Shown here piece by piece: positions 1,142-22,015 of a stretch of 55,499 nt of DNA; the first letter of the stretch is position 1; the number at the start of each line of letters is the position of its first letter. The notes beneath the pieces were generated by a model. That model worked only from the letters and a program-made list of their open reading frames with translations, was not told where the DNA came from and searched no databases. Both the position numbers and the translations under genes were made by a program. The stretch is taken from the NCBI GenBank assembly GCA_913009415.1, contig CAJVYM010000002.1, forward strand, positions 1 to 55,499, in the 5' to 3' direction. This stretch comes from an uncultured bacterium. GTDB lineage: Bacteria > Bipolaricaulota > Bipolaricaulia > UBA7950 > UBA9294.

Positions 1142-2564
1142 TCAGGCCAGTGGAGTCACCGGAGGTGAATTGGCGCGACCCCAGATCTTCTGAAGGTTCA
1201 ACCTCTCCCACACTACACGCGTCACCTTAAGGATGACCTGGTGGCTCGTAGCCACGATCTTCCCCGCAATGTCCAGGAATGTCCGGCGAAAGGTGGTCGG
1301 ATACACGTCAGGAGAGATGATCTCCGCAGTAACATCCCGCTTGAACGCCTCCAGCAGGTTGAACGCAAGGACCATCGTGTAGTAGAAGGCGGTGTTTGGT
1401 TCAACCCTCTTGAACGGAAGTTTCTCCGTACCAAACTCTTTCAGGGCACGGTGGCGTAGTTCGTCTCTGCCCCGGCCATGGGCCAGGCTAACCACCCCCG
1501 GGGTCGTCAACCAACCGGCTTTCCCCCCCGCGGTTAGTTTCTGCGTGAAAGTATCGTCTTCTCCCAGATTAGTGTAGTACACTTTCCGGTCTTGAGCAAA
1601 GGCAAACACTCCCTGGTGATCCTTGTTGGTTAGCCGGGTGAACACTACTCTCCTTCGCTTGTCCCACGTCCCCCGTTGGTCAGCAAACGAGGCGCAAAGA
1701 TAGCTGCGCCCGTCTTCCTTGTCTAACAGCTGCCAGTCCTCTTCAGGGATCTGCTCGGCTCGCTGCTTGATATCATTGTATAGCTTCCCTCCACATACGT
1801 AACCAATGCCCAGCTTCTCAAATGCACGGAAGTTCTCTTGGTCGAAGAAACCAGCATCTACAGTAAGCACGATCGGCACATCGGGATTGTACTCTCTCCT
1901 GATCCTCTCTACCATGTGGGACATCATACGCACCACTGTCTTGCCGTGGTTGGAGTGTTTCTTGCCGCGTCTGAACACCGCATCCACCACGTACGCTCCC
2001 CACTTCAGTTGCAGGGGTTGGAACCCGTTACGATCCTTGTAGGTGGGGTCTACCCCTTCTCTGCACCGCGCATCGTCGTTGTCCATCACCATCGTATCCA
2101 GATCCAACAACACGACGTCAGGTTTCTTTGCCCGAAGCCGCCACAGGAACAGATCTTGCAGCAGCCGGCGAAACAGGAAGTTCCTGCAGAAGGAGAACCC
2201 GTTGAGGAACCGTTTCATCTGATGCGATGAGACCATGTCGCCAAGATCCGTCTCGATGGTGGCGGCGTAGCCGGGATCGGCAGCCAGATGGTCAAAGTAG
2301 GTCAGGTGTAGATCCGTCCCATCCAGAAAGAAGCACAACAGTTGCTTGAATGCTTCTGCCACATTGACTCCCTTGGATGATTTGCGGATCGAGCCGAAGG
2401 CCTGCCCCGTGAAGTCTTACTTCATTGGGGTACCGATCAAGGAGACCGTAGATGTTGATCCTGTCCAGGTAGTGGACCCAAGGAGTCAAGCCGGCTCTGC
2501 TAGTCAAGTTATCAGGGGTGAGTTCGATACGATCGATCTTGTTCTTCGTTCGCTGACGGGTCAT
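1142..2564 (-). mobile_element. IS1380-family DDE transposase gene, split by a frameshift
   Basis: The N-terminal frame starts at ATG 2564 behind AGGAGG: MTRQRTKNKIDRIELTPDNLTSRAGLTPWVHYLDRINIYGLLD. The main frame runs FGSIRKSSKGVNVAEAFKQLL...DLDTMVMDNDDARCREG...LTVDAGFFDQENF...YYTNL...RGRDELRHRALKEFG...FYYTMVLAFNLLEAFKRD. By eye this is collinear with ISEcp1-type IS1380 transposases. The two frames can only be joined between 2295 and 2416. Confidence 0.8.
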
Positions 2565-2859
2565 AATAAAGCACCTCCTGGTGTGGATGGTGTTCACCCA
2601 TTGGGTGATACACAACACAGGGTTCTGAATGCTCTGTATTGTGCTTGTGTACTGCATTATACGCCAGGAGGCGCCTCTGTTCTAGCAAGGAAATCGCTCA
2701 ACTTAGGTTACAATTGCCCCTACAAGGGTTTCTGGCCTAACTTTGGTCAGAAAGCCTCGGAGGATAGGGTGAAGAACTTCCACTGTCTGTGGATGGACTC
2801 GCAATAGAATTAGTCCAGGGAGATCTTTATCTGCCGTGAAACGACGCGGGAAGTTTAGG

Positions 2860-3025
2860 TTATACGTAATTAAAATATAGTGTTTGCTCTGGTTGGTTTG
2901 TAGATTTCCCATCTAGAGCGCCGCTTTTTCCCAGTTCTCGGATGTCCTTGGTCTCCCAGCCCAGGCTGCGCAGAAACACCGCCGTCCTAGGGGGACAGGT
3001 TCTGATCGAGCAGGAACTTGGTCAT
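2860..3025 (-). pseudogene. DUF5615 (Mut7-C/PIN-like putative toxin) remnant, frameshifted and 3'-truncated
   Basis: ATG 3025 overlaps the DUF433 stop as ATGA. Manual translation gives MTKFLLDQNLSP then TAG. A shift of one base at the C-run (about 2990-2995) gives RTAVFLRSLGWETKDIRELGKSGALD, after which similarity is lost and the frame stops at 2860. Total length is ~55 codons, against ~110 expected for the family. Confidence 0.55.
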
Positions 3026-3276
3026 GGAGCAATTGAGCTACTCGTGGAGGTAAGCACGAGTTCATCGTCAATGAAGGCTGCAGCATACGCAATTGCCGCC
3101 TTGACATCCTTTTCTGCTAGCTCCAGATAGTACACAATAATCTGTTCGATGGTATACCCGCCAGCAAGCAGACTCAGGATGTTGCTCAGCATGATTCGAG
3201 TTCCCTTTATGATCAGCTTACCGTGGCAAACCTCAGGATCGATCACAATCTGCTCGAACTCTTTCATGGTGATCAC
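3022..3276 (-). CDS. DUF433 domain protein (antitoxin-like partner of DUF5615)
   Basis: 84 aa. The motif DPEVCHGKLIIKGTRIMLSNILSLLAGGYTIEQIIVYYLELAEKDVKAAIAYAA matches the DUF433 signature (CHGKP.IKGTR...L..G.s.eeI...YP.Lt.edI.AAL.YA). Confidence 0.8.
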   Translation of the reverse strand: MITMKEFEQIVIDPEVCHGKLIIKGTRIMLSNILSLLAGGYTIEQIIVYYLELAEKDVKAAIAYAAAFIDDELVLTSTSSSIAP

Positions 3277-3309: not shown

Positions 3310-4098
3310 TTAGGTCAGTTTCCTCGCTCGCACGATGAGGAAGAAGGGAAAGACCTGTGCAGCCTGGAGATTCGGATGCTGCAGCACGACCTCATCGCGC
3401 GGCCTCGGTTCGGCGAAGCGTTCGAGGGCGAAGCCAGCATCGATGAGTAGGTTCAACCACTCACTCATGGTGCGGGTAAACCTGGCCACCCTGAACTTTC
3501 TGACTTGCTCCCGCTGGTCTGTGGGCAGGGCGCCGAACGTCCATTCTTCTACCTCACCGTCCAGATTGTGGAAGTATCCGCCGATCTCGAACGCGTACGC
3601 TTTGCCTTGTTCATCGCGCAGCTTCTTGCGATGTGGGGTGTCAAAGCAGGGATGTAAGATCGAAAACTGGAAGAATCCACCCGGCTTGAGGACGCGATAT
3701 GCCTCGGAAACGGCGCGTTCAACCTCTGGAAGATCCATCAGGCTCATGAACGCAGTTGTGAAATCAAACGTTTCCCTGGGATATGGGAGACTAGCCGCGT
3801 CCGCCACACGGTATGAGATCCACAGCGTCTCTTGCTCTTCTTTCGCGCGCGCATGCTCGATGAAGCGCTCCGAGATGTCGATTCCTGTCATCCTCGCTCC
3901 GCGACGCGCCAAGAGACGAGAGTTGTGCCCTTCGCCACAGCCGATATCGAGCCCTTCAAGGCCATCAATGTCAGGAAGAATATCTAAGAACGTTGGCGTG
4001 TTGAACATATCGCGGCAGGTATCGTACCCGGCCCGGCTCAGCTCGGTCCACGTGTCCGCATTCTCGTTCCACATCCGTCCCGCTTCTTTGTTGTCCAT
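3310..4098 (-). CDS. class I SAM-dependent methyltransferase (Methyltransf_11/25 type, small-molecule-like)
   Basis: 262 aa. Motif I is LDIGCGEGHNSRLLARRGARMTGIDIS, and the post-I/II region is FDFTTAFMSLMDLPEVERAVSEAYRVLKPGGFFQFSILHP. Confidence 0.85.
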   Translation of the reverse strand: MDNKEAGRMWNENADTWTELSRAGYDTCRDMFNTPTFLDILPDIDGLEGLDIGCGEGHNSRLLARRGARMTGIDISERFIEHARAKEEQETLWISYRVADAASLPYPRETFDFTTAFMSLMDLPEVERAVSEAYRVLKPGGFFQFSILHPCFDTPHRKKLRDEQGKAYAFEIGGYFHNLDGEVEEWTFGALPTDQREQVRKFRVARFTRTMSEWLNLLIDAGFALERFAEPRPRDEVVLQHPNLQAAQVFPFFLIVRARKLT

Positions 4099-4290
4099 TC
4101 ATCCTCCGTCTTGTAAGCGCAATTCTAGCAGCACTTGTGCGATGTGACCAACGCCCTTGTACTTCGCAGTATCCCTCTGGTACCGTCTTGCCATGAGCGG
4201 GGAACGGATAGCCGTGTGCAGGTGAGGGATGTGTTTCCAGGCTGCTGAGTGCTATTGTTTATTGTTTGAGACAGAAATGGGAGGACAATA

Positions 4291-7200
4291 GTGATATCTC
4301 AAGAGGGACGTGAGAAGATCCAAGATTGGGGAAGTTGCAGCCGAAGTTTTTCCATCTTCCAATGTTCCGAGCACGATGCGGCACAGATTGCGGAAATCTT
4401 AGGCAAAGTTATCCCAGATTTAGCAACGGTGCACCCATCCGACTTGCTGGATTTATCTGAACCTAGTGGGCCGGTATTGCTGTACAACATTACATCGGAA
4501 GAAGCTTATGAGAACGCTAACGCTTTGCACCGTCTGGTTCTTCGTCTGATTCGTTGGGAGAATGAGTCTGTCTTCTTATTGAGCCCTGACCGTCAAGCTG
4601 ACTGGGAGAGAGGAAATTTGTGGTTGGACAATGGCAAAATTGATAATAGAGGTCTTCGTCTCGATGCGTTGACGCTTATTCTCAAACAGGACAGTGTTAT
4701 CTCGAGTAGCTCCCTTCTTGATCTAGCTTCCGATCAACCGGAGATGACCTACATTGAAGACCTGATGGCGAAAGCCCTAAGGAAGAAGGAATTATCTTCC
4801 AAAGCGCAGGCTCTCATCGGCCGATATCACGTTGACTTCCTTGTGGAAAAGAATGGCGCACAGGTTGTTGTTGAATGTGATGGCAAGGCCTATCACTCAA
4901 GCGCTGAAGCAAAAGAGAAGGACAAAGAGCGCGACTCGTATCTGCGAGCTCAAGGGTATCCGGTCCTACGGTTTACCGGGGGAGAGATCAATAGTAGGGT
5001 CGGGCGCTGCGTGGAACAGATTGAGCAGGCCTTGGATGAGTCACAGGTGGAGAAATCGCAGGGTTTTCTGATGGACGACAAACTTGATGACTCTCAGCAG
5101 AAAGCAGTATTCACCAAACCAGGGCAGGTCTGTGTCCTTGCCCCGGCCGGCTCCGGAAAGACGCTCGTCCTCACCAATCGAGGCATTCATCTTGTTAATG
5201 AGGGCTTTCATGAGTACCGCGTATTGGCCATGGCCTTCAACAGTGAGGCAAGAAAAGATATGCAGAAACGCCTTCGGAAGATGGGCTTTTCAGACGTTAA
5301 ACGCCAGGTTCATACCTTCAACAGCTACGGAGCTAATCTGCTCGCTGACAGATATGCGTTGACAGGACGGGGGTTTGATGCATACGCAGACAAGGAATAC
5401 TCTAAGAAACTCTTTGCAGTGGTAGAAAAGCACTGCGGGGAGCTTCGTAGAAAAAGGGGAGCTTCGCAGCCCTTGAAAGAGGCCATCGAAAACACAAAGC
5501 GCGAACTAGTGTCACCAGGCCGATTCCTTGAGCCAGTATGTAGGGGTCTCATAAAAGGTAAATGGCCAAAGGAGGACAATCCGATCTGGTCTGAGATATT
5601 CGAAGATTTCCTCCAGTGGCAGAAGGGCAGCGATCACTTAACCTTTGCTGATCAGGTTTACCTCGCTGTTCGAGAACTTGCGGAAGATCCGATCCTACGA
5701 AGGAAAACACAAATGTCGCTCGATGCCCTTCTGATCGACGAGTTCCAAGATCTTGATGCCGCACAATCGATGCTTATCGAGATCCTGGCGCTTGGACACG
5801 GAAACCTGTTTGTCGTCGGGGACGATGACCAGATGATCTATGGCTGGCGTGGGGCGGACATCGAGCGCTTGAGAAGGTTCTTGAAGGATCCTCACACACG
5901 CAAGGTTACCTTGTCTACGAATTACCGCTCTTCGCAGCTTGTCGTGCGCCATGCCGGCTTTCTCATTAGCCATAACACGCAACGTGAGGAGAAAAAGATT
6001 GAAGCACAAGCGAGTGCCTCACGAGGGAAAGTTGAACTCTTCATTGGATCAGATCTCGCTCAAGAAAAGGCATTTCTAGTGCAAAGCCTTCAAGAAGCGA
6101 AGGAAGCGGGATTTGAGTGGGGGAAAATCGCGGTACTGGTGCGGTATAGGGACTTGTATCGCGCGGTTGTAGACGCCTTACAGGGGGCTGGAATCCCATA
6201 TTTCTGTATAGAAAAGCCGGTTTTCTACTCCCGACGAGCTGCCGGTGCCATGATAGGCTACTTTGCCGCAGTGCTTGGCTGGCCATCTCCTCCTAGAGAT
6301 GTTTGGAAGGCAATTCTCCACGTACCAAATCGGTATCTTAGCGACGACTATATATCCCGAGTCAATAATGCTGAGAAACCGGTCGCTTTCCTTCGCTCCG
6401 GCGAGGGTCTTACCACCAGCAAGAGCGATGTAGAGAAAAGAAGGAAAGTTGTTCAGTTACTTGACCACCTTCAAGGACTGCATGAGTTAGAGAAAATGGA
6501 TCCTTCAGATGCCAATGATCTCTTCCGCAAGATCGATGGTGCATTCGCGCTCAACAGGCACTTCAAGCAGCAACGCGGAATTTCTGACGACAATGACACA
6601 GCTGATGAAGGTTCGATTCTTGAACAGCTTGAAGAGCGCGCAAAGGAGTTTGCTAATCCACACGACTTCCTGAAGTATTGCGAGGCCCAACGAGATAGCG
6701 AAGAGGAAAACAAGGAGAGAGAAGAAAACAGCAACGGTCACGATGTCACTGTACAAGTGATGACAATCCACAGGGCAAAGGGGAAAGAATGGCGAGGGGT
6801 AGCCCTCTTCCACCTTGAATCGCGAAACAACTCCTCCTATGAATCAAACGAAAAGGAGAAGGAGAGTGTAGAGGAGGAGCGGCGCGTAGTCTATGTGGGT
6901 GCGACACGGGCGATTGAAAGGCTGTGGGTTACCGCTGAGAGGGGAAAGAAAAGCCGCTTCGTCAACGAGTTGTTTAGTGATCCAGACTTCAGCCAACTGG
7001 ACACATCTCAAGAATTAGGGTACCGACAGGAGCGGCTGAACAACATTGAACAACAGATCAATAGCCTGCAAGAAGAGAAGAATCAAGAACAGATCGCCGT
7101 TGATCGTGCACAAGGCATCGACCGAGACAGTGTGCACAAAGAGTTCGATGCACGAAAACAAAGCATGGGCTTCTTCAAGCGGCTCCTATTCTCAATAGGC

Positions 7201-7437
7201 ATAGAAGGATCGCGGGTTCGGCAACTCAAGAAGGACCTTGCAGTTGCCGAGAGAGCCGCTCGTGCAGAGCAACGAATACAAGAAATGGATGATCGAATTG
7301 CCAAAGTCCGGGAAGCGAAGCGAAATATCCTCGAAGAGGTAGATCGGCTAGAACGGGAGGAAAAGTTCCGACAGATTCTCGCAGATCCGATCGAGAAAGA
7401 TGCTGAGAATCAGGGGCCTCCATTCCAGTCGACATGA
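4291..7437 (+). CDS. DUF559 (Vsr-like endonuclease fold) - UvrD/Rep SF1 helicase fusion with an unknown N-terminal domain and a C-terminal coiled coil
   Basis: 1048 aa, GTG start behind GGGAGG. DUF559 signature: YHVDFLVEKNGAQVVVECDGKAYH...RDSYLRAQGYPVLRF. Helicase motifs: VLAPAGSGKT, LIDEFQDLD, VVGDDDQMIYGWRGAD, TNYRS, VMTIHRAKGKEW, VYVGATRA. The last ~150 aa are charged and heptad-like. Confidence 0.85.
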   Translation: MISQEGREKIQDWGSCSRSFSIFQCSEHDAAQIAEILGKVIPDLATVHPSDLLDLSEPSGPVLLYNITSEEAYENANALHRLVLRLIRWENESVFLLSPDRQADWERGNLWLDNGKIDNRGLRLDALTLILKQDSVISSSSLLDLASDQPEMTYIEDLMAKALRKKELSSKAQALIGRYHVDFLVEKNGAQVVVECDGKAYHSSAEAKEKDKERDSYLRAQGYPVLRFTGGEINSRVGRCVEQIEQALDESQVEKSQGFLMDDKLDDSQQKAVFTKPGQVCVLAPAGSGKTLVLTNRGIHLVNEGFHEYRVLAMAFNSEARKDMQKRLRKMGFSDVKRQVHTFNSYGANLLADRYALTGRGFDAYADKEYSKKLFAVVEKHCGELRRKRGASQPLKEAIENTKRELVSPGRFLEPVCRGLIKGKWPKEDNPIWSEIFEDFLQWQKGSDHLTFADQVYLAVRELAEDPILRRKTQMSLDALLIDEFQDLDAAQSMLIEILALGHGNLFVVGDDDQMIYGWRGADIERLRRFLKDPHTRKVTLSTNYRSSQLVVRHAGFLISHNTQREEKKIEAQASASRGKVELFIGSDLAQEKAFLVQSLQEAKEAGFEWGKIAVLVRYRDLYRAVVDALQGAGIPYFCIEKPVFYSRRAAGAMIGYFAAVLGWPSPPRDVWKAILHVPNRYLSDDYISRVNNAEKPVAFLRSGEGLTTSKSDVEKRRKVVQLLDHLQGLHELEKMDPSDANDLFRKIDGAFALNRHFKQQRGISDDNDTADEGSILEQLEERAKEFANPHDFLKYCEAQRDSEEENKEREENSNGHDVTVQVMTIHRAKGKEWRGVALFHLESRNNSSYESNEKEKESVEEERRVVYVGATRAIERLWVTAERGKKSRFVNELFSDPDFSQLDTSQELGYRQERLNNIEQQINSLQEEKNQEQIAVDRAQGIDRDSVHKEFDARKQSMGFFKRLLFSIGIEGSRVRQLKKDLAVAERAARAEQRIQEMDDRIAKVREAKRNILEEVDRLEREEKFRQILADPIEKDAENQGPPFQST

Positions 7438-8828
7438 CTGCGCAACAAGCTGAGCCGAAGAGGATCGTCATCGCTGGCTACTACGGGTTTGGAAACCTTG
7501 GGGACGAGGCGATCCGCGTTGCGCTGCACGAGGAACTCGCTAAGCTCAGCATCGATGCGTTCTGGCTTTCCGCTTCCCCACAGGGAGCAGATGAGATCGA
7601 TCGAAGGTCTCTGCTGCGTGTGTATACTGCCTTGCGGCACTGCCGGGCGCTTGTCCTCGGCGGTGGCGGCCTGCTCCAGAATAGAACGAGCAACCGCTCG
7701 CTCTTGTACTACCTCGGGTTGATCGCTCTTGCGCGCATTGCAAGAAGGCCGGTCTTCCTTTTTGGCCAAGGGATCGGCCCGATAAACGGGCGCTTTGCAC
7801 AGGAGCTGACGCGCATTGCACTGAAGCGTGCATCCTACATTGGCTGCCGCGATCAACAAAGCGTAAACTTCCTACGAACCCTGGAATTGGACGCGGTGAT
7901 CGAAGGCGATCTGTTCTTCCTCCTCCCGCCGGTCGAGGCTCCAGCGACACGATCCTCGGAGAGCTATCACATCATCTTGTCGATCAAAGGCGGAAAAAAC
8001 GATGGAAGCCTTTGTTATCCTAAGCGGGGCTTCAAGGAGGAAGGCTCAAGTGCCAAGATTCTCACAGAGGGACAAGACATTTCCACCGCGAAGGGCACGA
8101 AGAGCACGAAGGAGTCAGAGAGCGAAGCGCTTGATCATAATCTTAAGCTTGGTGGCATCGCACAGCCAATTACCGCATTTGACAACCCATCGAGTTCCAT
8201 TCTTCGTGTCCTTCGTAGTGAATTCTCTTCGGCTTCCGGCCTTGCTTCGCAACCGGCATCCGTACCGCACGAACCGGAATTGGAAATCACTACTCACTCC
8301 TGTCTCCCTCGCCGGCACAGGCAGGCGAAGCGACAAGGAACTGACGATGGCGAGATGGTCGAGAGGGTGGTGCACATGCTCGATAAGGTCTCGCACAGAA
8401 CTAAGATCTCCGTGACGCTCCTTCCATTCTTCCCCACACAGGATTTAGACCTTAGCAAGAGGATCGCTGATCGGCTCAATATTCCCTGCCGCATCGTGCG
8501 CGCCGATACGATCGACAATACAATTCACGTACTGGAAGACGCGGACCTCGTGATATCATCTCGTTTGCACGGGCTGGAATTCGCGCTGCGCGCGGAAGCG
8601 CCGATGATCGCGTTAAGCGAGGACGCAAAGATCGATGCCTTTGTAGCTGAGGTAAGAGATGCGAGTGGCTTTGAGATCCATTGTGGTCGTTTTCCATCTT
8701 CGGAGCAGGTTATGGAGGTCCTCAACTCGCCGCCATCGCCTGAGGCTTTGCATGCAGCATATCGCGCCATGCACGCGCGGGCGATCGAGGGATTCTCACG
8801 ATTTGTCGCCGCATTGGAGAAACTATGA
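7434..8828 (+). CDS. csaB: polysaccharide pyruvyl transferase, CsaB-like, carrying a ~115-aa low-complexity insertion
   Basis: 464 aa. The N-terminus IVIAGYYGFGNLGDEAI...LVLGGGGLLQNRTSNRSLLYYLG...FLFGQGIGP is typical of CsaB. The C-terminal half reads LVISSRLHGLEFALRAEAPMIALSEDAKIDAFV. ATGA overlap with the upstream helicase gene. Confidence 0.7.
   Translation: MTAQQAEPKRIVIAGYYGFGNLGDEAIRVALHEELAKLSIDAFWLSASPQGADEIDRRSLLRVYTALRHCRALVLGGGGLLQNRTSNRSLLYYLGLIALARIARRPVFLFGQGIGPINGRFAQELTRIALKRASYIGCRDQQSVNFLRTLELDAVIEGDLFFLLPPVEAPATRSSESYHIILSIKGGKNDGSLCYPKRGFKEEGSSAKILTEGQDISTAKGTKSTKESESEALDHNLKLGGIAQPITAFDNPSSSILRVLRSEFSSASGLASQPASVPHEPELEITTHSCLPRRHRQAKRQGTDDGEMVERVVHMLDKVSHRTKISVTLLPFFPTQDLDLSKRIADRLNIPCRIVRADTIDNTIHVLEDADLVISSRLHGLEFALRAEAPMIALSEDAKIDAFVAEVRDASGFEIHCGRFPSSEQVMEVLNSPPSPEALHAAYRAMHARAIEGFSRFVAALEKL
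7990..8350. repeat. in-frame repeat-like insertion inside csaB
   Basis: The segment has no counterpart in CsaB proteins as I remember them. It contains tandem CACGAAG at 8096-8111 and inverted tandem CTTCGT(G/A) at 8202-8217. It translates to KGTKSTKE...LRVLRSEF, which is typical of repeat-derived peptide strings. Confidence 0.4.
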
Positions 8829-9790
8829 GCATAGAACAAGTAGATTATAGAGCTATCCACCAGCCGGTGCTCATGCGTGAGGTGGTGAAGCTATTGTCTC
8901 CTAGACCAGGTGCTACGATCGTCGATGGAACCATCGGCATGGGCGGGCACAGTGAGGGACTCCTCGCAGCATACCCGACGTTCGAAGTGATCGGGATCGA
9001 TCGCGACGAAGATGCGCTGATGATCGCCAAAGAGCGGCTCGCCCCCTACAGCGATCGCGTTCGCCTTGTGCACGGCAACTACCGCGATTGTGTGGAGATT
9101 CTGAGTACGCTTGGACTAGACCAGATCGATGGCTTCCTCCTCGACCTTGGCCTGTCGTCTCTGCAACTCGATCGGCCCGAGCGCGGGTTCAGCTTCCGCG
9201 AAAGCGGACCGCTCGATATGCGCATGGATCGTACAGGCGGAGCGAGCGCAGCCGACCTGGTCAACGATGCATCAGTCGTGGAACTCTCAGGCATCATCTC
9301 CCGCTACGGTGAGGAACGATTCGCTCATCGTATCGCCGGCGCGATCGTGGCTGCGCGCACAAAGGTGAGGATCGAGACGACGGACGAACTAGCGAGGATC
9401 GTGCACGATGCCATACCGCGCAAGTTTCATCCCCCGCGCATCCATCCGGCGACGCGTACCTTTCAGGCACTGCGCATCGCGGTGAACGACGAGCTTTCTA
9501 ACCTGGAGAAGGGACTGGAGGCGGGCTTCTCCGTCCTCTCCGCAGGAGGCGTGATGGCGGTGATCAGCTTCCACTCACTGGAGGATCGCATCGTCAAGGG
9601 GTTCTTTCGCTACAAGGGCCTCTCCTGCATCTGTCCACCCGATCTGCCGGTGTGCATGTGCGATAAGAAAGTGGAGATGGAGGTGCTCACGAAACACGTG
9701 ATCATCCCCACGCTAGAGGAGATCGCGACAAACCCGCGCGCCCGCAGCGCGAAACTGCGCGCGGCGAGGAAGCTTGAGGCGATAGACTAG
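8825..9790 (+). CDS. rsmH: 16S rRNA (cytosine1402-N4)-methyltransferase RsmH (MraW)
   Basis: 321 aa with HQPVLMREV, DGTIGMGGHSE, LLDLGLSSLQLD, GPLDMRMD, ISFHSLEDRIVK and NPRARSAKLR. Confidence 0.95.
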   Translation: MSIEQVDYRAIHQPVLMREVVKLLSPRPGATIVDGTIGMGGHSEGLLAAYPTFEVIGIDRDEDALMIAKERLAPYSDRVRLVHGNYRDCVEILSTLGLDQIDGFLLDLGLSSLQLDRPERGFSFRESGPLDMRMDRTGGASAADLVNDASVVELSGIISRYGEERFAHRIAGAIVAARTKVRIETTDELARIVHDAIPRKFHPPRIHPATRTFQALRIAVNDELSNLEKGLEAGFSVLSAGGVMAVISFHSLEDRIVKGFFRYKGLSCICPPDLPVCMCDKKVEMEVLTKHVIIPTLEEIATNPRARSAKLRAARKLEAID

Positions 9791-9864
9791 ATTCCACTTT
9801 TGACGGCACGTCGCTTCAGGAGCGGACAAACACCGTGGTTGATTCGCGATATCGGGCAGTGCGA

Positions 9865-10389
9865 TCAACAATCGGAGAGTTCTCTTCTGACGAAATCCTC
9901 TATCTCAGCGATATCGGCCGAGTCTTTGGTGGATTCCTTCCAGTTGTTGATGACTAGCTGGAAATGCTCGGACGGTGCATCATCTGCCCAATTCTTGTAT
10001 TCGGATTGAGATTCCTTGCTGAAGAGGTATATTCCCTGCAAGATCCCCATACAGCAGTGCTTTGCCTCCAGGGGCATGGACAGATCCTGATACCTCTTCA
10101 TCTCACGCATGAATGGGTGCAGCGTCTCCTCAAACATCTCCCATGCCGCTTCCCCCGGCTCAATGTACTCATTGGGGTCCCCCGCGCGCTCCCAAACGTC
10201 TTCAACTGCCAGGGCGTCGAGGTCGAAGTACACATGATGAGCGATCTCCTCCGCATTTATGTCGGTCAAGCGTCTGCGTGCGATTTGTTCGATCTTTCGC
10301 TCAAGGTCCGTATCCTCCTCGGCAAGCTGTCTAAGGATACTTAGCGCTTCATCGGGAGTCAGTTGATCAATGATTATATTATTGTCCAT
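9865..10389 (-). CDS. hypothetical acidic protein (third gene of the antisense cassette)
   Basis: 174-aa ORF with an ATG start, 36 nt downstream of the nucleotidyltransferase gene. No recognisable motif. AT-richer than its neighbours. Confidence 0.6.
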   Translation of the reverse strand: MDNNIIIDQLTPDEALSILRQLAEEDTDLERKIEQIARRRLTDINAEEIAHHVYFDLDALAVEDVWERAGDPNEYIEPGEAAWEMFEETLHPFMREMKRYQDLSMPLEAKHCCMGILQGIYLFSKESQSEYKNWADDAPSEHFQLVINNWKESTKDSADIAEIEDFVRRELSDC

Positions 10390-10425
10390 ATTGTCGCTTA
10401 TTGTGTATTATGAGCACTGTTATCG

Positions 10426-10998
10426 CTAACTCTCTATCGTCTCCGCTTCCGCCTCGATCTCTTTCAGCAAGCTCTCCACCCCTATTTTCTTGGCCCAATC
10501 GTGCAAGTAGTCGATGTCCAGCGTTCCAAATTGCACCTCGTAGACTCGTAGGGCATCTGTCAACTGCTTGGCGCTGCTTCCCGAGAGCTTCGCCCATCTC
10601 AACTTTGCCAGAATAGTGTCTTCGGGAGCGGAGACAGCAATCTTGATGCCTAGTACCTTTTCAGAATGTCGGCGTGAGAAACGCATTCGATCGAATGGCT
10701 CGTCGGTGAGCAGCCAAAAATCGACTTTATTTCCTGTATCCGAATCGATGAGATTAAATACGTCTCTTCTAGCAACTGCTTCGGCAACGCGATCCTTATT
10801 CAGGTAGAAACGTGGAGGAGAAAAGGATTGAACAATATCGTCAACTGCGTCTGCCTGAATGTCAACAACAAGATCTATGTCATGACTCGATCGTGGCTCT
10901 CCCTGAAGGCTGGAAGCGAACGACCCAGTCAGCATGTATTCTACGCCAGCGCGTGACAGCGCCTGAACGACCCTTTTTAGTAATTCCTGTTGTGACAT
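10426..10998 (-). CDS. minimal nucleotidyltransferase (pol-beta fold) family protein
   Basis: 190 aa. LTGSFASSLQGEPRSSHDIDLVVD matches the G[SG]-x(9-13)-D-x-D NTase signature. It overlaps the upstream small gene by 22 nt. Confidence 0.7.
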   Translation of the reverse strand: MSQQELLKRVVQALSRAGVEYMLTGSFASSLQGEPRSSHDIDLVVDIQADAVDDIVQSFSPPRFYLNKDRVAEAVARRDVFNLIDSDTGNKVDFWLLTDEPFDRMRFSRRHSEKVLGIKIAVSAPEDTILAKLRWAKLSGSSAKQLTDALRVYEVQFGTLDIDYLHDWAKKIGVESLLKEIEAEAETIES

Positions 10999-11752: not shown

Positions 11753-13517
11753 GAAGGCCCCCGCGCGCGCCTGGTTCATCATCGCGCTTCTGATGATCGG
11801 CGGGATCGCTGTTGTTGGACGTCTCGTTCAGTTGCAAATCGTTCAGCACGATCATTGGCTGGCTGTGGCGAGCACGATTCAAGAGCAGACCGTCGATCTA
11901 CTGCCGCGGCGGGGGACGATCTACGATCGCAACGGTGTTGCGCTTGCCTACGACATCAAGGCAACAGCGATCGCCATCGATAGCTTCGACATGACCAACC
12001 CGCAGGCAATCTGCCAGATCCTCGCAGACGAGCTGAATCGTCCGATTGGTGAGATAGAAAGACTCGTGTACCGTCCGCGCTACTTCACCTGGATTAACCG
12101 CAGCGCCGATCTGGAGACGGCGAAGAGGATAGAAAAGCGAGCGAGCGAAGCAAGAGCGCACGGCCTGATCTTCATCGACACGTGGAAGCGCTGCTACCCT
12201 CAGGGCGATCTGGCCTCGAACATCATCGGTTTCGTCGGCACGGATGGGCACGGTCTGGAGGGAATCGAGCTTGCCTATGACAACAAGCTTGCCGGGAAAA
12301 GCGCGAAAATCCAGGTCGTCAAGGGAGCGGACGGGCGTACGTATCACACCGAGACGATGCAGGAGGGACAGCCGGGAGATGACGTTTACCTGACGATCGA
12401 CTCCGATTTGCAGTTCATATGCGAAAAGGAGATCGACAGTGGCGTGAGCCGTTATCGCGCCAACACCGGATTCGTGATCCTGATGGATCCCAACAGCGGT
12501 GAAGTCCTGGCAATGGCACAGGATCGCCGCTACGACCTGAACAAATTCTGGCAATCGACGGCAACGCAGAGGAAGAACCTGGCCACCGGTTTCATGTTCG
12601 AGCCTGGATCGACGTTCAAGGCGTTTGGTGGCCTTGCGGCGATTAACTGTGGGGCCGTCAAACCGAGCGACACATTCAACGGAAACGATGGGATCAACAT
12701 TGCCGGGCACGTGATCCACAACTCCGACCACGAGTCCTTCGGCACGGTGACCTTCGCCAAGACGATCCAGTACTCGATCAACACCGCGATGATCCGCGTC
12801 GCGCAGCGGCTGGGTGAGGATCGCCTGTACCACTTCCTCGTCGATCTTGGCTTTGGTAAGGCAACAGGGATCGAGATCCCCGGTGAAGTGAACGGCATCC
12901 TGCGCAACGTGAGCAAGTGGTCCAAGCTCGCCCTCGCCTCGACGGCGATCGGCCAATCGGTAGGGGTAACCGGGATTCAGCTTGTGCGGGCAATGGCCGC
13001 AGTGGCTAACGGTGGAAAGGTTCTACTGCCCCACATCGTCAAGCAAGTAGGCGACAAGACGACGGACACGCCGACCGTGTTGCGCAGCGTGGCCACGCCG
13101 ACAAGCTGTGCTACCATGCGTACCCTGATGCGCGCGGTCGTCAAGGATGGGACGGCCCCTTGGGCAAATCTACCGGGGTATGAAGTCGCAGGGAAAACCG
13201 GAACAGCGCAGAAGGCGGTTCCGGGAAAGGGATACGTCGATGGAAAGTACACGTCCCTCTTCGCTGGATTCTTTCCCGTCGATGCACCAAAGTATCTGGG
13301 CCTCGTCGTTCTCGACGAAGTAAAGACGACACCCGTGTGGGGCGGGTACACGGCAGGGGCCATCTTCCACGATGTCGCTTCACGGCTTGTGTTGGCTGAA
13401 CATGTTGCACCGGTCGTCAGCATACAGAGCCAGGGGAAACAGTACACAGCACCAACCCAAGGGACAACATCGTCTGGCACTACTTCTTCTCCCCCTGCTT
13501 GGTTGCGGCTACCCTAG
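11718..13517 (+). CDS. ftsI: penicillin-binding protein 2 / FtsI-type peptidoglycan D,D-transpeptidase
   Basis: 599 aa with an N-terminal TM helix and a PBP dimerisation region. Motifs: FEPGSTFK (SxxK), HNS (SxN-like) and AGKTGTA (KTG). Confidence 0.85.
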   Translation: MYTLHPPQQKSEKAPARAWFIIALLMIGGIAVVGRLVQLQIVQHDHWLAVASTIQEQTVDLLPRRGTIYDRNGVALAYDIKATAIAIDSFDMTNPQAICQILADELNRPIGEIERLVYRPRYFTWINRSADLETAKRIEKRASEARAHGLIFIDTWKRCYPQGDLASNIIGFVGTDGHGLEGIELAYDNKLAGKSAKIQVVKGADGRTYHTETMQEGQPGDDVYLTIDSDLQFICEKEIDSGVSRYRANTGFVILMDPNSGEVLAMAQDRRYDLNKFWQSTATQRKNLATGFMFEPGSTFKAFGGLAAINCGAVKPSDTFNGNDGINIAGHVIHNSDHESFGTVTFAKTIQYSINTAMIRVAQRLGEDRLYHFLVDLGFGKATGIEIPGEVNGILRNVSKWSKLALASTAIGQSVGVTGIQLVRAMAAVANGGKVLLPHIVKQVGDKTTDTPTVLRSVATPTSCATMRTLMRAVVKDGTAPWANLPGYEVAGKTGTAQKAVPGKGYVDGKYTSLFAGFFPVDAPKYLGLVVLDEVKTTPVWGGYTAGAIFHDVASRLVLAEHVAPVVSIQSQGKQYTAPTQGTTSSGTTSSPPAWLRLP

Positions 13518-16420: not shown

Positions 16421-17008
16421 ATGCAGCTTCAGGACTGGGTTCAACGTTACGGCGTCGTGGTGGGACCGGAGTTCTTACGGGTGGACGGCTTTCTCAATCA
16501 CCGCATCGACCCGGCGTTCATGGAGGAGGTGGGGCGACGGCTTTTTGATAGATTTGCCAATTCAAATGTGAGTTGTGTGCTCACCGCGGAGGCAGCCGGA
16601 AATGTGGTCGCCTATGAGGTGGCGCGTCGGCTGGGGGCGAAGGCGCTGTACGCGAAGAAGGGGCACGCCGCCACGATGAACAACCCGTACGTTCGCACCA
16701 TCATTTCGCCCACCAAGGGGACTGCGGCCGAACTTGCCGTGTCCAAAGACTACCTCACCAAACAAGAACGCGTCTTGATCGTGGATGATTTCCTCTATCG
16801 CGGGGACACCTCCGCTGCCCTGGCCGACATGGTGATTGAGAGCGGGGCGAGCCTTGTTGGGTTTGGCTTTGTGATTGCTAAGGAGTTCGGTGAGGGGAGA
16901 CAGGTGCTCTCGCGCTACGAAAAACCGGTTGTCACGTTGGTCTCGATTGCGAACATGAATCCGGAGACAGGGAGCATCGTGTTCGCTGAGGCAGAAGAAG
17001 ACCGATGA
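16421..17008 (+). CDS. xpt: xanthine phosphoribosyltransferase
   Basis: 195 aa, collinear by eye with B. subtilis Xpt ([13 protein letters not shown]...VLTAEAAGN...[13 protein letters not shown]). Confidence 0.9.
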
Positions 17009-18528
17009 GCGTCGTCATCCTCGATTTCGGGTCGCAGTACACACGCCTGATCGCACGTCGCATCCGGGAACTGCACGCCTACTCCGTGATCCTGCCCGGA
17101 AAATCTACCGTTGAGGAGATCACAGCGCACGATCCGCAGGCGATAATTCTGTCCGGCGGGCCCGCCTCCGTGCTCCAGCCGGGCGCCCCTCAGCCGGATG
17201 AGGGGCTGTTTGACCTCAATCTGCCGATCCTGGGGATCTGCTATGGGATGCAGTACCTTGTGCTTCACTTCGGTGGCCGTGTCATTCTCACCGGAACCAG
17301 GGAGTACGGTCGCGCCCGCCTCATCCAATGTGGCGGGCCCCTCTTTGCCGGGTTGGAGGACGGGGATCTACAAGTGTGGATGAGCCACTCCGATGCGGTG
17401 ACCGAGCTGCCGCCAGGCTGGCGGGGGACGGCGCGCACGGAGGACAACCCGATCGCCGCCGTCGAATCCCCGGACGGGCGGATGTTCGGGATCCAGTTTC
17501 ATCCCGAGGTTGTTCACACCCCGCAAGGGAAGATTGTATTGGCCAATTTCCTGCGCATTGCCGGCGTTGTGCTCGATTGGACCCCGTCTCGTACGCTGGA
17601 ACGCTTGCTCGCTGAGGTGCGGGAACGCACCGATGGGGGCAAAAAGCGTGTCCTCCTGGCAGTCTCCGGCGGGGTGGATTCATCCACTCTAGCCCTCCTT
17701 CTCACCCGCGCGGGTATCGAGCATATCGCGGTGTTCGTCGATCACGGCCTGCTGCGCGCGGGCGAGGGAGAGGAGGTGGAGAAGTTGCTGCGCCCACTGG
17801 GGGTAAACCTGGTGAGCGTGGATGCCTCCGAGCGGTTCCTCTCCGCCCTTGCCGGGATAGCCGATCCTGAGGAGAAGCGGAAGATCATTGGCCGCGAGTT
17901 CGTGGCCGTGTTTACAGAGGAGGCACGCGTGCACGGGCCGTCTCACTTCCTCGCGCAAGGGACGCTCTATCCCGATGTGATCGAATCTGCGGGAAGTGAG
18001 GGATCAGCGAACATCAAGAGCCACCACAACGTCGGTGGGCTTCCCGAGAGCCTCGGGTTCAAGCTTCTGGAGCCGTTCCGTTACCTGTTCAAGGACGAGG
18101 TGCGCGAGATCGCACGCCTGCTGGACCTACCCGAAGATATCCGTGAACGCCATCCCTTCCCCGGGCCCGGACTAGCAATCCGGATCATCGGTGAGGTTAC
18201 GCCGGAGCGGTTGCGCGTCCTGCGAGAGGCGGACTCGATCTTTATCTCGTCTCTCAAGGAGGCTGGGCTGTACGATCATGTCTGGCAGGCCCTCGCGGTC
18301 CTCACCGCGGCCAGGAGCGTTGGGGTCGTGGGAGATGAACGGAGGTACGGCTACATCCTCGCCCTGCGAGCGGTGACGAGCGTGGATGGGATGACCGCAG
18401 ATTGGGCCCGCCTACCACATGATTTTCTCGATCGCGTCGCTTCCCGCATCACCCGCCAGATACCGGAGATCGGCCGCGTGGTCTATGATATCACCAGCAA
18501 ACCACCGGCGACGATCGAATGGGAATAA
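17005..18528 (+). CDS. guaA: GMP synthase (glutamine-hydrolysing)
   Basis: 507 aa. GATase part: [18 protein letters not shown]-PPase P-loop: [10 protein letters not shown]-terminus: [13 protein letters not shown] overlap with xpt. Confidence 0.95.
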
Positions 18529-18536
18529 TCTTCGAC

Positions 18537-18564
18537 TTGTGCATCACGCCGTCTCGCTTATAAT
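18537..18564 (+). promoter_or_regulatory. candidate promoter of the pyr operon
   Basis: TTGTGC (18537-42), 16-nt spacer, consensus TATAAT (18559-64), 25 nt upstream of pyrB GTG 18590. Confidence 0.45.
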
Positions 18565-18589
18565 CCGAACAAAACTTAAGGGGGTTGGT

Positions 18590-19528
18590 GTGGCTACAAA
18601 CCACTTCCTCGCTTCTCTCGACTTCTCACCTGAGAATTATGATGTTCTCTTCTCACTCGCTTCTCGAATTATCGATTCTCCATCCGACTACGGCGATCGT
18701 TGTCGCGGCAAGCTGATGGCGACTCTGTTTTACGAGCCGAGCACACGCACCCGGCTGTCGTTTGAGGCAGCGATGCTTCGGCTGGGCGGTGGTGTGATCA
18801 GCGTGGCGAGCGCGAAGAGCAGTTCGGTATCCAAGGGCGAAAGCCTCGGTGACACAATACGTACCGTCGGGGGATACGCTGACCTAATCGTCATGCGTCA
18901 TCCCAAGGAAGGGGCGGCGATCCTGGCGGCGGAGTACTCGCCAGTTCCGCTGATCAACGGCGGGGACGGGGCGCGCGAGCACCCCACGCAGACCCTGACC
19001 GACCTGTTCACCATCCATCGGTTCAAGGAGCACTTCGACGGCCTGACGGTCGCGTTCTGCGGCGATCTGCGCTACGGTCGGACAGTGCACTCTCTCGTCA
19101 AGGCACTTGCCCGCTACTCCGGGGCCAAATTTATCCTGATCTCCCCGCCGGAGCTGCGCCTTCCGGAGCGGATCGTGCGTGAGGTAAAGGAGATAAACCC
19201 TGCGGCGACGCTGGAGGAGACAGCTAGGATGGAGGACGGTCTAGAGATCGCCGACGTTCTGTACATGACCCGCATCCAGAAGGAGCGCTTCTTCAACGAG
19301 GAGGATTACATCAGGCTGCGCGACACGTACATCCTCACGGAAGACAAGCTGCGGGCGGCCTCCTCGGAGATGATCGTCATGCATCCGCTCCCACGGGTGA
19401 CCGAGATCGACTACGCAATCGACGCCGACCCGCGTGCCGTCTACTTCGATCAGGCGCGGTTCGGGATGTTCGCGCGCATGGCGCTGATCGTCCATCTGCT
19501 TTCGGACAAGGAGGACGGAGATGCTTAG
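18590..19528 (+). CDS. pyrB: aspartate carbamoyltransferase catalytic subunit
   Basis: Start set to GTG 18590 behind AAGGGGG; the longer ORF-track start at 18419 overlaps guaA. Motifs: FYEPSTRTRLSFE, HPTQ, HPLPRV. Confidence 0.95.
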   Translation: MATNHFLASLDFSPENYDVLFSLASRIIDSPSDYGDRCRGKLMATLFYEPSTRTRLSFEAAMLRLGGGVISVASAKSSSVSKGESLGDTIRTVGGYADLIVMRHPKEGAAILAAEYSPVPLINGGDGAREHPTQTLTDLFTIHRFKEHFDGLTVAFCGDLRYGRTVHSLVKALARYSGAKFILISPPELRLPERIVREVKEINPAATLEETARMEDGLEIADVLYMTRIQKERFFNEEDYIRLRDTYILTEDKLRAASSEMIVMHPLPRVTEIDYAIDADPRAVYFDQARFGMFARMALIVHLLSDKEDGDA

Positions 19529-19943
19529 GGTTGACCGCATTACCGACGGGATCGTGATCGATCACATTCAAACCGGTCGTGGTCTGAAGGTGTTCGAGCG
19601 GTTGGGGCTGCGCAAGGCTGGTTATCCGGTGGCGCTGCTGATGAACGTGGCGAGCAGTAAGATGGGGCGCAAGGACATCATCAAGATATCCGATACGCTG
19701 GACATCGACCTCACCATGCTCGGGCTCCTTGCCCCCGATGCCACCGTCGACTACATAGAAGACGGCGCGGTGACGCGCAAGGTCACCCCCGGGCTTCCGG
19801 AGCGAGTGGTCGGACTGATCGAGTGCAAGAACCCGCGCTGCATTGTTGCGGTTGAGCGCCAGGTAACCTCCGTGTTCACCCTCGTCGATCGAGAAGCGAA
19901 GGAGTACGAGTGCGCCTACTGCGGCGAACGGGTCAGGGTGTGA
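19521..19943 (+). CDS. pyrI: aspartate carbamoyltransferase regulatory subunit
   Basis: 140 aa. N-terminus ITDGIVIDHI, C-terminal Zn motif CKNPRCI...YECAYCG. Confidence 0.9.
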   Translation: MLRVDRITDGIVIDHIQTGRGLKVFERLGLRKAGYPVALLMNVASSKMGRKDIIKISDTLDIDLTMLGLLAPDATVDYIEDGAVTRKVTPGLPERVVGLIECKNPRCIVAVERQVTSVFTLVDREAKEYECAYCGERVRV

Positions 19944-21166
19944 GCAAAGGTCTGCTGATCACCAACGTCCGGCTGGTCGATGGGCACAGCGATTTTCGCG
20001 GCGATCTGTACATCGAGGACGGCCTGATCAGCGCCGTCGGTAGGGGCCTGCGCATCCCGGATGCGGACGTGCTGCCGGGTGGGGGGAGGACCCTCCTCCC
20101 GGCGTTTGTCGACCTGCACGCCCACTTCCGCGACCCCGGCTACCCGGAGAAGGAGGACATCGAAAGCGGAAGCGCAGCCGCGGTGCACGGCGGCTACACT
20201 GCGGTCGCGGTGATGGCAAACACCAATCCGGTCTGTGACCGCCCGGAGATTGCCACCTACATGCAAGAGAAGGCGGCCCGGGCCGGGCTGATCGAACTGT
20301 ACCCGCTCGGGACAATTACCCGCGGGATCGCTGGGGAGGAACTATCCAACATGGACGGGCTCGCCCCACACATATGGGCGTTCTCCGACGACGGGCGCGG
20401 GGTGGAGCGACCCAATGTGGCCCTGCTCGCCTTCCGCCGCGCCGCCGCGCTCGGTCGCCCGATTGCCGAACACTCCGAGTACCGCGGGATCGACGATCCG
20501 GCCCTGGCCGAGGAGGTAATGGTGAATCGCGACCTGCTCCTCGCCCGCCGTACCGGCTGTGCGCTTCACGTCGAGCACGTGAGCTCCGTTGGCTCTGTTG
20601 AGCTGATATCCGCGGCAAAGCGGGACGGAGTACCGGTCACCTGCGAGGTGACGCCGCACCACCTGTGCTTGGAGCCGGGCTACATCGTGAACCCGCCGCT
20701 CGTCCCGCGGGAGGTCCGGGAGCGGCTGCTCGCCGCCCTCGCCTCCGGAGTGATCGACGCCGTCGCCACCGACCACGCCCCGCACACTGCGGCGGACAAG
20801 GAGAAGGGAGCCCCGGGGATCTCCGGAATTGAGACCGCGTTTCCCCTCCTACACTCACGGCTGGTGCGCACGGGCCAGCTTGATCTTCAGTCCCTCGTGC
20901 GTGCCATGGCAGCCCGGCCGGCGCGGATCCTCGGGCTGAACAAGGGATCGCTCGAGCCCGGCCGCGACGGGGACGTGGTGCTGATCGAGGAGGACGAGGA
21001 GTTTACCGTGACCGAGGATTGGCTTCTGTCGCGTGGGAAGAACACCCCGCTCATTGGACAGAGGCTGCGCGGGAGGGTGTGGGCGACCGTGCGGCGCGGA
21101 CAGGTCGTTCATCTGGACGGAAAGACTTTTGGGAGGGATTTTGATGATCATCGATCGATTGTTTGA
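19940..21166 (+). CDS. pyrC: dihydroorotase
   Basis: GTG 19940 overlaps the pyrI stop (GTGA). Motifs: FVDLHAHFRDPG and TDHAPH. Confidence 0.9.
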   Translation: MSKGLLITNVRLVDGHSDFRGDLYIEDGLISAVGRGLRIPDADVLPGGGRTLLPAFVDLHAHFRDPGYPEKEDIESGSAAAVHGGYTAVAVMANTNPVCDRPEIATYMQEKAARAGLIELYPLGTITRGIAGEELSNMDGLAPHIWAFSDDGRGVERPNVALLAFRRAAALGRPIAEHSEYRGIDDPALAEEVMVNRDLLLARRTGCALHVEHVSSVGSVELISAAKRDGVPVTCEVTPHHLCLEPGYIVNPPLVPREVRERLLAALASGVIDAVATDHAPHTAADKEKGAPGISGIETAFPLLHSRLVRTGQLDLQSLVRAMAARPARILGLNKGSLEPGRDGDVVLIEEDEEFTVTEDWLLSRGKNTPLIGQRLRGRVWATVRRGQVVHLDGKTFGRDFDDHRSIV

Positions 21167-21998: not shown

Positions 21999-22015
21999 AG
22001 GTCGCAGCGGCTCAG

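Follow-up and report, generated by a model that had tools for sequence, protein, structure and literature searches.

What does a protein that joins an endonuclease to a DNA helicase do for a bacterium that keeps its gene just upstream of a conserved cell-division locus? The question is raised by a 55,499-nt stretch of DNA (the window: positions 1 to 55,499 of contig CAJVYM010000002.1, NCBI GenBank assembly GCA_913009415.1) from an uncultured member of the Bipolaricaulota, in which an open reading frame (ORF) of 1048 amino acids (aa) had been singled out in an initial annotation as a nuclease-helicase and a candidate for defence. Fusions of a nuclease with a superfamily 1 (SF1) helicase are common, recurring in bacterial immunity and in DNA-end processing; what is new here is a nuclease-SF1 helicase fusion with a family-specific N-terminal domain (N-domain) and exchangeable modules. 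We read the product as a stand-alone, horizontally exchanged nuclease-helicase whose role is, tentatively, most likely to be defence against mobile elements. This reading draws on the architecture of the protein, on the conflict-type evolution of its gene, and on the island contexts of many of its relatives.

Domain architecture

Pfam, together with a full-length AlphaFold2 model built from a 30-sequence family alignment (mean predicted local distance difference test score (pLDDT) 81.7), bears out the four-part domain order of the initial annotation, and the strings it quoted are all present (VDFLVE at aa 181-186, VVECDG at 193-198, APAGSGKT at 284-291 and DEFQD at 483-487). The coordinates of each part are given in Table 1, and the conservation figures that follow refer to alignments of 30-31 family members. 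The GTG start of the ORF lines up with the starts of its orthologues in the alignment.

The nuclease exceeds the gathering scores of two Pfam families over aa 151-248, namely DUF559 (E 2.7e-15, 56.6 bits against a cut-off of 20.6) and the MTES_1575 Vsr-type restriction endonucleases (E 1.5e-13, 51 bits against 38.2), and its acidic and histidine core is conserved, as befits a member of DUF559/MTES_1575. Residues E156, Q173, D182, D197-G198 and R214 are invariant, F183 beside D182 is invariant or nearly so, and conservation reaches 90% or more at E195, H202 and D215 among family members that are only ~25-30% identical; the Pfam matches and this conservation agree with the intact D...ExD core of a DUF559/Vsr fold that had been read from the translation. 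In a sequence search of the PDB, the nuclease domain matched 3hrl, a DUF559 structure (E 4e-4), and, only weakly, I-Bth0305I, a homing endonuclease (3r3p, E 0.07). There was no model of Vsr proper among the Pfam and NCBIfam matches, and the methyltransferase that adjoins the gene is a class I enzyme of the small-molecule kind rather than the Dcm-type DNA C5-methyltransferase that would partner Vsr. A short linker (about aa 249-262), modelled by AlphaFold2 with low confidence at 252-257, connects the nuclease to helicase domain 1A.

The helicase belongs to the SF1A UvrD/PcrA/Rep superfamily, with motifs Q, I, Ia and II-VI and the 1A/1B/2A/2B fold. Pfam assigns UvrD-helicase to aa 266-533 (E 6e-46) and UvrD_C to aa 540-882 (E 5e-32), and every one of the motifs (the Q motif, Walker A APAGSGKT, DEFQD, VGDDDQxIY, NYR, TIHxAKGxE and EEERRxxYVxxTR) is invariant in the family. 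The top Foldseek matches are UvrD1, UvrD, PcrA and Rep (E ~1e-30 over ~670 aligned columns), which, with Pfam and the invariant motifs, bears out the complete UvrD/Rep motif set proposed at the outset; a sequence search led to the same proteins. The NCBIfam equivalog scores fall far below their cut-offs (235 against 911 bits for PcrA, 219 against 1144 for UvrD and 207 against 951 for Rep), and the protein is thus a UvrD-like helicase and not an orthologue of these housekeeping enzymes.

Beyond the helicase, AlphaFold2 predicts a tail of long helices (905-939, 945-958, 961-968 and 974-1030). The annotation had described a charged heptad tail of ~150 aa; the charge (40% of residues) and the long helices stand, while the heptad periodicity is only modest, the observed value being reached by 2.3% and 10% of shuffles. 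The last ~160 aa find no match in Pfam, NCBIfam, PADLOC or PHROGs, except for a marginal one to PADLOC LmuB (E 0.039).

At the other end of the protein, the first ~160 aa had been described as free of any recognisable motif, and aa 1-150 are indeed unmatched in all of the hidden Markov model (HMM) libraries scanned: Pfam (also at E<=1), NCBIfam, PADLOC and PHROGs. The structure prediction and Foldseek search suggested for this region were carried out on aa 1-148. Modelled alone by AlphaFold2, the domain forms a four-stranded alpha/beta unit (pLDDT 85.5, predicted template modelling score 0.82), and its Foldseek neighbours in the PDB and BFVD are AAA+ cores only, all of them weak (IstB with a template modelling (TM) score of 0.62, DnaI-like proteins, clamp loaders and ClpX). 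Nothing was found at E<=1e-3, the best values being 9e-3 in the PDB and 1.3e-3 in BFVD, with TM scores <=0.62. A P-loop or Walker A motif (GxxxxGK[ST]) does not occur in aa 1-148, where strand 1 is followed by FSIFQCSEHDAAQ. Judged by Walker A and B motifs and by a significant structural match, the N-domain does not qualify as an AAA+ ATPase, and its resemblance to one is of fold only; with low certainty, the model suggests a degenerate P-loop/AAA+-like domain.

Family distribution and ancestry

The N-domain is rare. Searched against 1.84 billion cluster representatives, its profile picks out only 79, with the match always N-terminal. All 39 long N-domain matches carry a UvrD helicase, and 15 of the 39 carry a Pfam DUF559 domain. 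Family-specific HMMs sort the fetched proteins into 55 that combine N-domain and nuclease and 23 with just the N-domain; no protein had a nuclease but lacked the N-domain. A neighbour-joining (NJ) tree, calculated by this method only and with no support values, groups the N-domain helicases in a single clade apart from the PcrA/UvrD outgroups. On these sequence comparisons, the family is defined by the joining of the N-domain to a UvrD-like helicase. Nuclease-bearing lineages are basal in the same tree, with nuclease-less lineages nested several times among them; the ancestral architecture is therefore seemingly that of the window gene, and the nuclease appears to be ancestral and to have been repeatedly lost in some branches. 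One member, P0017 (1494 aa), is a further fusion variant with an extra leucine-rich repeat and other Pfam domains.

Members are found in metagenome-assembled genomes labelled Bipolaricaulota, Fraserbacteria, Anaerolineae, Thermomicrobiaceae, Calditrichaeota and KSB1, and also Bacteroidota, Patescibacteria, Wirthbacteria and Marinibacterium. All of the proteins most similar to that of the window (57-83% identity) come from metagenomes, and one match to a named genome is to Candidatus Bipolaricaulota.

Mosaic evolution of the gene

Within the Bipolaricaulota-like clade, the nuclease-helicase has a history different from that of the genes around it. The order helicase-csaB-rsmH-...-ftsI is common to the window and two related loci, L001 and L081, while two further loci, L082 and L083, carry the gene elsewhere. 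Between L001 and L081 the core proteins are closely similar (MutS 93%, FtsI 92%, CsaB 88% and RsmH 87% identity), but the helicases are only 71.5% identical. Conversely, the window is distant from both in its core proteins (~64-68% for FtsI and RsmH; 64% and 68%, respectively, against L001), and yet the helicases of the window and L001 are 83.3% identical. In essence, the gene tree is in conflict with the core-gene tree. With the window and L001 compared, the rate of synonymous substitution (dS) comes to 0.23-0.42 in the gene; by module, it is lowest in the helicase core (0.23), followed by the nuclease (0.36) and the N-domain (0.67), and is saturated in the tail (2.8). In the flanking genes it reaches 1.6 (rsmH) and 1.9 (ftsI).

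The limits of the exchanged DNA coincide with those of the gene and its modules. In a sliding window, nucleotide identity to L001 rises from ~50% to 85% at the ribosome-binding site (~4280) and drops to 46-65% past ~6960, the junction of helicase and tail, enclosing a block of recent exchange (Table 1); the flanking core genes of L001 are only 50-74% identical to those of the window. The modules also differ in their nearest relatives: the window helicase is nearest to that of P0001 (91-96%), and the tail to those of P0003 and P0004 (73-75%, against 50% to P0001). P0007 combines an N-domain and tail of the P0001 type with a helicase of the P0004 type, and P0008 is likewise a composite. The ratio of nonsynonymous to synonymous rates (dN/dS) is 0.14-0.26, indicating that the gene is kept by purifying selection and is functional. 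In L081, an in-frame TGA (12392-12394) that precedes motifs V and VI splits the helicase orthologue into products of 797 and 236 aa; two contigs have yielded records of the truncated product.

Base composition sets the gene apart as well. Its G+C content is 0.500, against 0.576 for the whole window, and its G+C at third codon positions (GC3) is 0.527, against 0.62-0.71 in its neighbours (rsmH 0.714, ftsI 0.707); the same gap separates the gene from core genes in all five Bipolaricaulota-like loci (0.50-0.53 against 0.68-0.72). These values agree with the AT-richness noted in the initial annotation, whose hand counts (30/60 G+C at 4321-4380 and 45/60 at 20041-20100) proved exact on recount.

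Taken together, synteny, discordant identities, dS, breakpoints, mosaic proteins, selection and GC3 indicate an accessory gene subject to repeated exchange and reshuffling between lineages, rather than a core gene passed on vertically. Universal synteny as a core gene had been named beforehand as the observation that would speak against defence; the gene is instead exchanged and mosaic. Its recent, gene-precise exchange and module shuffling make an unusually clean case of such evolution inside a conserved cell-division locus.

Proposed function and alternative explanations

If the protein defends its host, its parts suggest how. The UvrD-type motor would load at nicks, gaps or forks and translocate 3'->5' on single-stranded DNA, driven by ATP, while the Vsr-like nuclease, flexibly tethered to domain 1A, would nick or cut the DNA being tracked. 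UvrD-family enzymes unwind as dimers, and the coiled-coil tail could dimerise the protein or recruit partners; the catalytically dead AAA+-like N-domain might act as a sensor or a regulatory surface. The target would be invading DNA, that is, phage or plasmid replication intermediates, in the manner of Nhi, Hna and Hhe, and the conflict would then play out on two surfaces, the variable 2B region and the tail. Somewhat more tentatively still, we propose that the proteins form a new single-protein family of anti-phage or anti-plasmid immunity in which the 2B region and coiled-coil tail are shuffled as surfaces of specificity or evasion. Such a family would add a compact system encoded by one gene from phyla that have received little study (Bipolaricaulota, Fraserbacteria, Chloroflexota, Calditrichota, KSB1 and others) and a natural experiment in module shuffling that could reveal the surfaces that meet the invader.

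The neighbourhoods of the family speak on both sides. Mobile or defence genes lie within ~8 kb in ~10 of 20 contexts, a raw count without a background rate (Table 1), and the comparison of neighbourhoods proposed in the initial annotation thus yielded the expected link in about half of them. In one of these contexts (L089), fragments annotated as epimerase or GDP-mannose dehydratase flank the gene on both sides; no convincing direct att repeats were found around this island. The L081 gene upstream of the helicase (7805-9958, + strand), a 717-aa ORF between mutS and the helicase with a helicase-like GC3 of 0.50, is unmatched in Pfam, PADLOC and PHROGs and absent from L001 and the window; it is a probable further accessory insertion at the locus.

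Several observations weigh against a defence role. The remaining contexts are housekeeping only (L001, L083, L003, L006, L010, L035, L011, L005, L087 and L090), and an all-against-all BLAST of the neighbours at ~40 loci found no partner gene conserved across lineages or phyla. The only recurrent neighbours (aldo/keto reductase, major facilitator superfamily transporter, epimerase and BacA) reflect lineage synteny of the nuclease-less branch, whose members (KSB1, Cytophagia and Ignavibacteria) sit in conserved metabolic synteny. In the window, the stop codon of the nuclease-helicase overlaps the start of a csaB-like pyruvyl-transferase gene, itself overlapping with rsmH at the front of the dcw (cell-division) cluster, an arrangement that places the gene, as far as the sequence tells, in translational coupling with csaB-rsmH and in the same operon as rsmH. 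The mismatch-repair gene mutS is the immediate upstream neighbour in L001 and lies one gene further upstream in L081. Searches of 72,556 plasmid records and 50,697 phage records gave isolated DUF559 matches but no member of the family, and our literature search found no paper on DUF559 together with UvrD or on the architecture of the family. PADLOC, run on the protein, returned generic GajB/UvrD helicase models and domain-level DUF559 matches (PDC-S37, Hhe and a homing-endonuclease model). What stands of the defence proposal in the initial annotation is therefore an accessory, conflict-type gene (GC3, discordant tree, breakpoints, nonsense allele and about half of the contexts); the housekeeping half of the contexts and the lack of a conserved partner count against it.

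Some of the same observations would fit an enzyme of genome maintenance that nicks and unwinds, in which the Vsr-like domain incises a mismatch or lesion and the fused UvrD strips the nicked strand; MutS would possibly direct the incision, and the fusion would replace the separate MutH/Vsr and UvrD steps of E. coli. Vsr is the fold of a repair nuclease and UvrD the helicase of mismatch and excision repair, the gene is co-oriented and overlapping with housekeeping genes and under purifying selection, and the nuclease-less relatives keep stable housekeeping synteny. The adjacency to mutS, however, comes down to one syntenic arrangement shared by two close relatives, which counts as one event; L082, L083, L003 and all distant members lack it, and tblastn found no mutS in the window. 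Deviant GC3, a discordant phylogeny, module shuffling and nonsense alleles are not expected of core repair genes, members of the family are very few and their distribution over the phyla is patchy, and the NCBIfam scores lie far under the PcrA, UvrD and Rep cut-offs. A repair role is the main rival to defence but the less likely of the two; were it correct, the protein would show incision and unwinding joined in one polypeptide. Its more specific form, a horizontally spread, MutS-directed and self-contained module for mismatch or lesion excision, standing in for MutH/MutL-endonuclease and UvrD, is improbable; if true, it would amount to a type of bacterial mismatch repair that has so far gone unrecognised.

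Two further explanations carry little weight. The complete motif set, the best structural matches to UvrD, PcrA and Rep, and the shared locus in three related genomes might suggest the ordinary UvrD/PcrA orthologue of the lineage with functionally minor extra domains, but this, too, has little chance of being right: the protein scores under every equivalog cut-off, its helicase falls in a clade of its own marked by the N-domain, and the nuclease active site is invariant in members of ~30% identity, which argues that the domain is not decorative. The different loci in L082 and L083, the truncated allele in L081 and the horizontal exchange of the gene also speak against it. Least probable of all is a selfish nuclease, in which DUF559 would act as a homing endonuclease (cf. 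I-Bth0305I) whose cutting drives gene conversion with no benefit to the host. The domain does match the PADLOC homing-endonuclease model (E 1.8e-4) as well as I-Bth0305I, it is an optional insert between N-domain and helicase, and homing would explain the recent, conversion-like spread of segments between lineages. Yet the tract of most recent exchange (5236-6960) falls within the helicase instead of being centred on the nuclease (4741-5034), the nuclease is present in every member of the Bipolaricaulota-like clade with no empty target allele seen, it is seemingly ancestral and repeatedly lost rather than invading, and both nuclease and helicase are under purifying selection.

Other features of the window

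The initial annotation had the gene bordering the debris of insertion sequences (IS) and toxin-antitoxin (TA) genes. Its content is confirmed, with an IS1380-family transposase, a DUF433 gene and a weak DUF5615 fragment, but it lies 1-3 kb upstream, beyond a divergent S-adenosylmethionine (SAM) methyltransferase gene. An in-frame piece upstream of the DUF5615 fragment has no likeness to DUF5615, and fragment and DUF433 gene together (2703-3276) are probably a decayed TA pair.

The SAM methyltransferase is 89% identical to a divergent neighbour of the helicase in L082 (6884-7672), while the two helicases are only 62-63% identical, and the divergent pairing thus recurs in two otherwise different contexts. 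We considered the enzyme as a modification partner of the nuclease and rejected it, as it is a small-molecule class I methyltransferase found beside the helicase again only in L082. Its sole PADLOC match, mad2, is in our reading a generic match to a class I methyltransferase domain.

The csaB-like polysaccharide pyruvyl transferase gene (7434-8828, + strand) encodes 464 aa, against 353 in L001 and 349 in L081. Its residues ~186-310 have no counterpart in either, and Pfam matches the protein in two stretches; the comparison indicates a lineage-specific insertion of about 120 aa. Inside the dcw cluster, between rsmH and ftsI, lie two low-GC genes (174 and 190 aa; 9865-10998, - strand), the second with weak nucleotidyltransferase matches (Aminoglyc_resit, DUF6932 and NTP_transf_2). 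The two are 71-76% identical in L081 and have no tblastn match in L001, and they may be an accessory, MNT-type TA-like pair. Positions 17001-24000 have a G+C content of 0.60-0.69, markedly above that of the first 16 kb (0.50-0.585). Promoter and terminator scans gave counts no higher than those in shuffled sequence, and searches of the window turned up neither RNA elements nor tRNA integration sites.

Table 1. Features of the window and of the loci of family members with mobile or defence genes nearby.
Feature	Locus	Coordinates	Strand	Evidence or content
Whole ORF, 1048 aa	Window	4291..7437	+	N-domain, DUF559 nuclease, UvrD helicase, helical tail; GTG start
Shine-Dalgarno-like GGGAGG	Window	4279..4284	+	6 nt ahead of the GTG start; read from the sequence
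N-terminal alpha/beta domain, aa 1-148	Window	4291..4734	+	Family signature; possibly degenerate AAA+/P-loop-like (low certainty), no Walker A
DUF559 / MTES_1575 Vsr-fold endonuclease, aa 151-248	Window	4741..5034	+	Pfam; D182, E195-x-D197, H202, R214-D215
UvrD/PcrA/Rep-type SF1A helicase core, aa 266-882	Window	5086..6936	+	Pfam, NCBIfam, motifs, Foldseek
Charged helical (coiled-coil-like) tail, aa 895-1030	Window	6973..7380	+	AlphaFold2 helices; exchangeable module
Recently exchanged block	Window	5236..6960	+	93-97% nucleotide identity to L001; stops abruptly at the helicase/tail junction
ATGA overlap, helicase stop / csaB-like gene start	Window	7434..7437	+	Translational coupling (predicted)
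Divergent class I SAM methyltransferase, small-molecule type	Window	3310..4098	-	Pfam, NCBIfam
DUF433 gene, intact	Window	3022-3276	-	E 9e-20
DUF5615 fragment, weak, C-terminal	Window	2703-2912	-	17 bits, under cut-off
IS1380-family transposase	Window	1142-2362	-	220 bits, cut-off 180; match covers 49-417 of the 419 model positions
Mobile/defence context	Window			IS1380, DUF433
Mobile/defence context	L081			ParE/ribbon-helix-helix (RHH) and nucleotidyltransferase genes; low-GC 717-aa gene directly upstream
Mobile/defence context	L082			AbiEii/AbiEi
Mobile/defence context	L084/L085			DUF5906
Mobile/defence context	L086			Recombinase, integrases, SNase
Mobile/defence context	L088/L089			Integrase, SNase, H-NS, PIN/Phd, IS elements
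Mobile/defence context	P0033 contig			PLD + MZB/DUF1998 + 1718-aa helicase, 2 kb away; DISARM/Druantia-like
Mobile/defence context	L091	7959-11257		McrB-like (AAA_5, McrB_lid) + McrC directly downstream, same strand
Mobile/defence context	L092			NERD-UvrD, SLFN-type helicase, RecQ-like helicase, integrase
Mobile/defence context	L008			ResIII helicase

Comparison with known systems

The combination had been said to fit no named system, and PADLOC, with its generic helicase and single-domain matches, gave no cause to revise this. In motifs and fold, the motor resembles UvrD, PcrA and Rep (M. tuberculosis UvrD1, E. coli and D. radiodurans UvrD, and PcrA). It differs from them in its low identity (~24-26%), in the lack of equivalog-level scores and in forming a separate clade; the window protein also adds an AAA+-like domain and a Vsr-like nuclease and has a coiled-coil tail where UvrD and PcrA have their usual C-terminal region.

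Hhe (HheA, PDLC02194) and the PADLOC candidate PDC-S37 likewise combine an SF1 helicase and a DUF559/MTES_1575 Vsr-type nuclease in one polypeptide, and the domain-level matches of the nuclease are to these models (E 2e-4 and 5e-8, respectively). In both models, however, the nuclease lies near the C-terminal end (1686-1761 of 1911 and 1238-1344 of 1550), whereas in the window protein it is N-terminal to a UvrD-type motor. Only aa 158-229 align with Hhe, which is not among the 25 best of 46 PADLOC matches. The helicase of Hhe is of the DUF4011/AAA_11/AAA_12 (Upf1-like) type, and CnuH, the helicase of the CoCoNuT systems, is also UPF1-like. Gabija, whose GajB gives the best PADLOC scores (E 4e-65), pairs a nuclease with a UvrD-like protein, but the nuclease GajA (OLD/TOPRIM) is a separate adjacent gene; the sequence match to the solved GajB covers only ~100 residues (E 6e-10), and the neighbours of the window gene (SAM methyltransferase, CsaB-like and RsmH) have no match to GajA.

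In CoCoNuT type III-B, a Vsr-like nuclease is fused to the CnuH helicase and accompanied by McrBC homologues (eLife 2024, PMC11090510). The direct fusion of a Vsr-like nuclease to an SF1 helicase and the coiled-coil elements are shared with our protein, and one distant relative (L091) has McrB and McrC immediately downstream. CoCoNuTs always come with CnuB/CnuC (the McrB/McrC homologues), in contrast to the window gene, whose helicase is UvrD-type and whose neighbourhood holds no McrBC gene; UvrD is not mentioned in the CoCoNuT paper (PMC11090510). Nhi and Hna are single nuclease-helicase proteins that act on phage DNA replication intermediates (PMC10732053). Here the likeness is of logic only, as the domain families differ (UvrD-type and Vsr/DUF559 in the window protein); no Nhi model is among the 25 best of 46 PADLOC matches or among those for aa 1-260, and no Hna is among the matches listed.

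The end processors AddA, RecB and AdnB share with the window protein a UvrD-like SF1A motor and a nuclease of the PD-(D/E)xK superfamily (Foldseek E 1e-19 to 1e-22). Their RecB-type nuclease sits at the C-terminus and functions within heteromers (with AddB, RecC/RecD or AdnA), whereas that of the window protein is N-terminal and of Vsr type; scores against AddAB, RecBCD and AdnAB models are far under their cut-offs, and there is no AddB or RecC partner gene. By analogy, the window protein would work most like Hhe, Nhi and Hna and like the end processors AddA and RecB, while the matches listed assign it to none of these systems.

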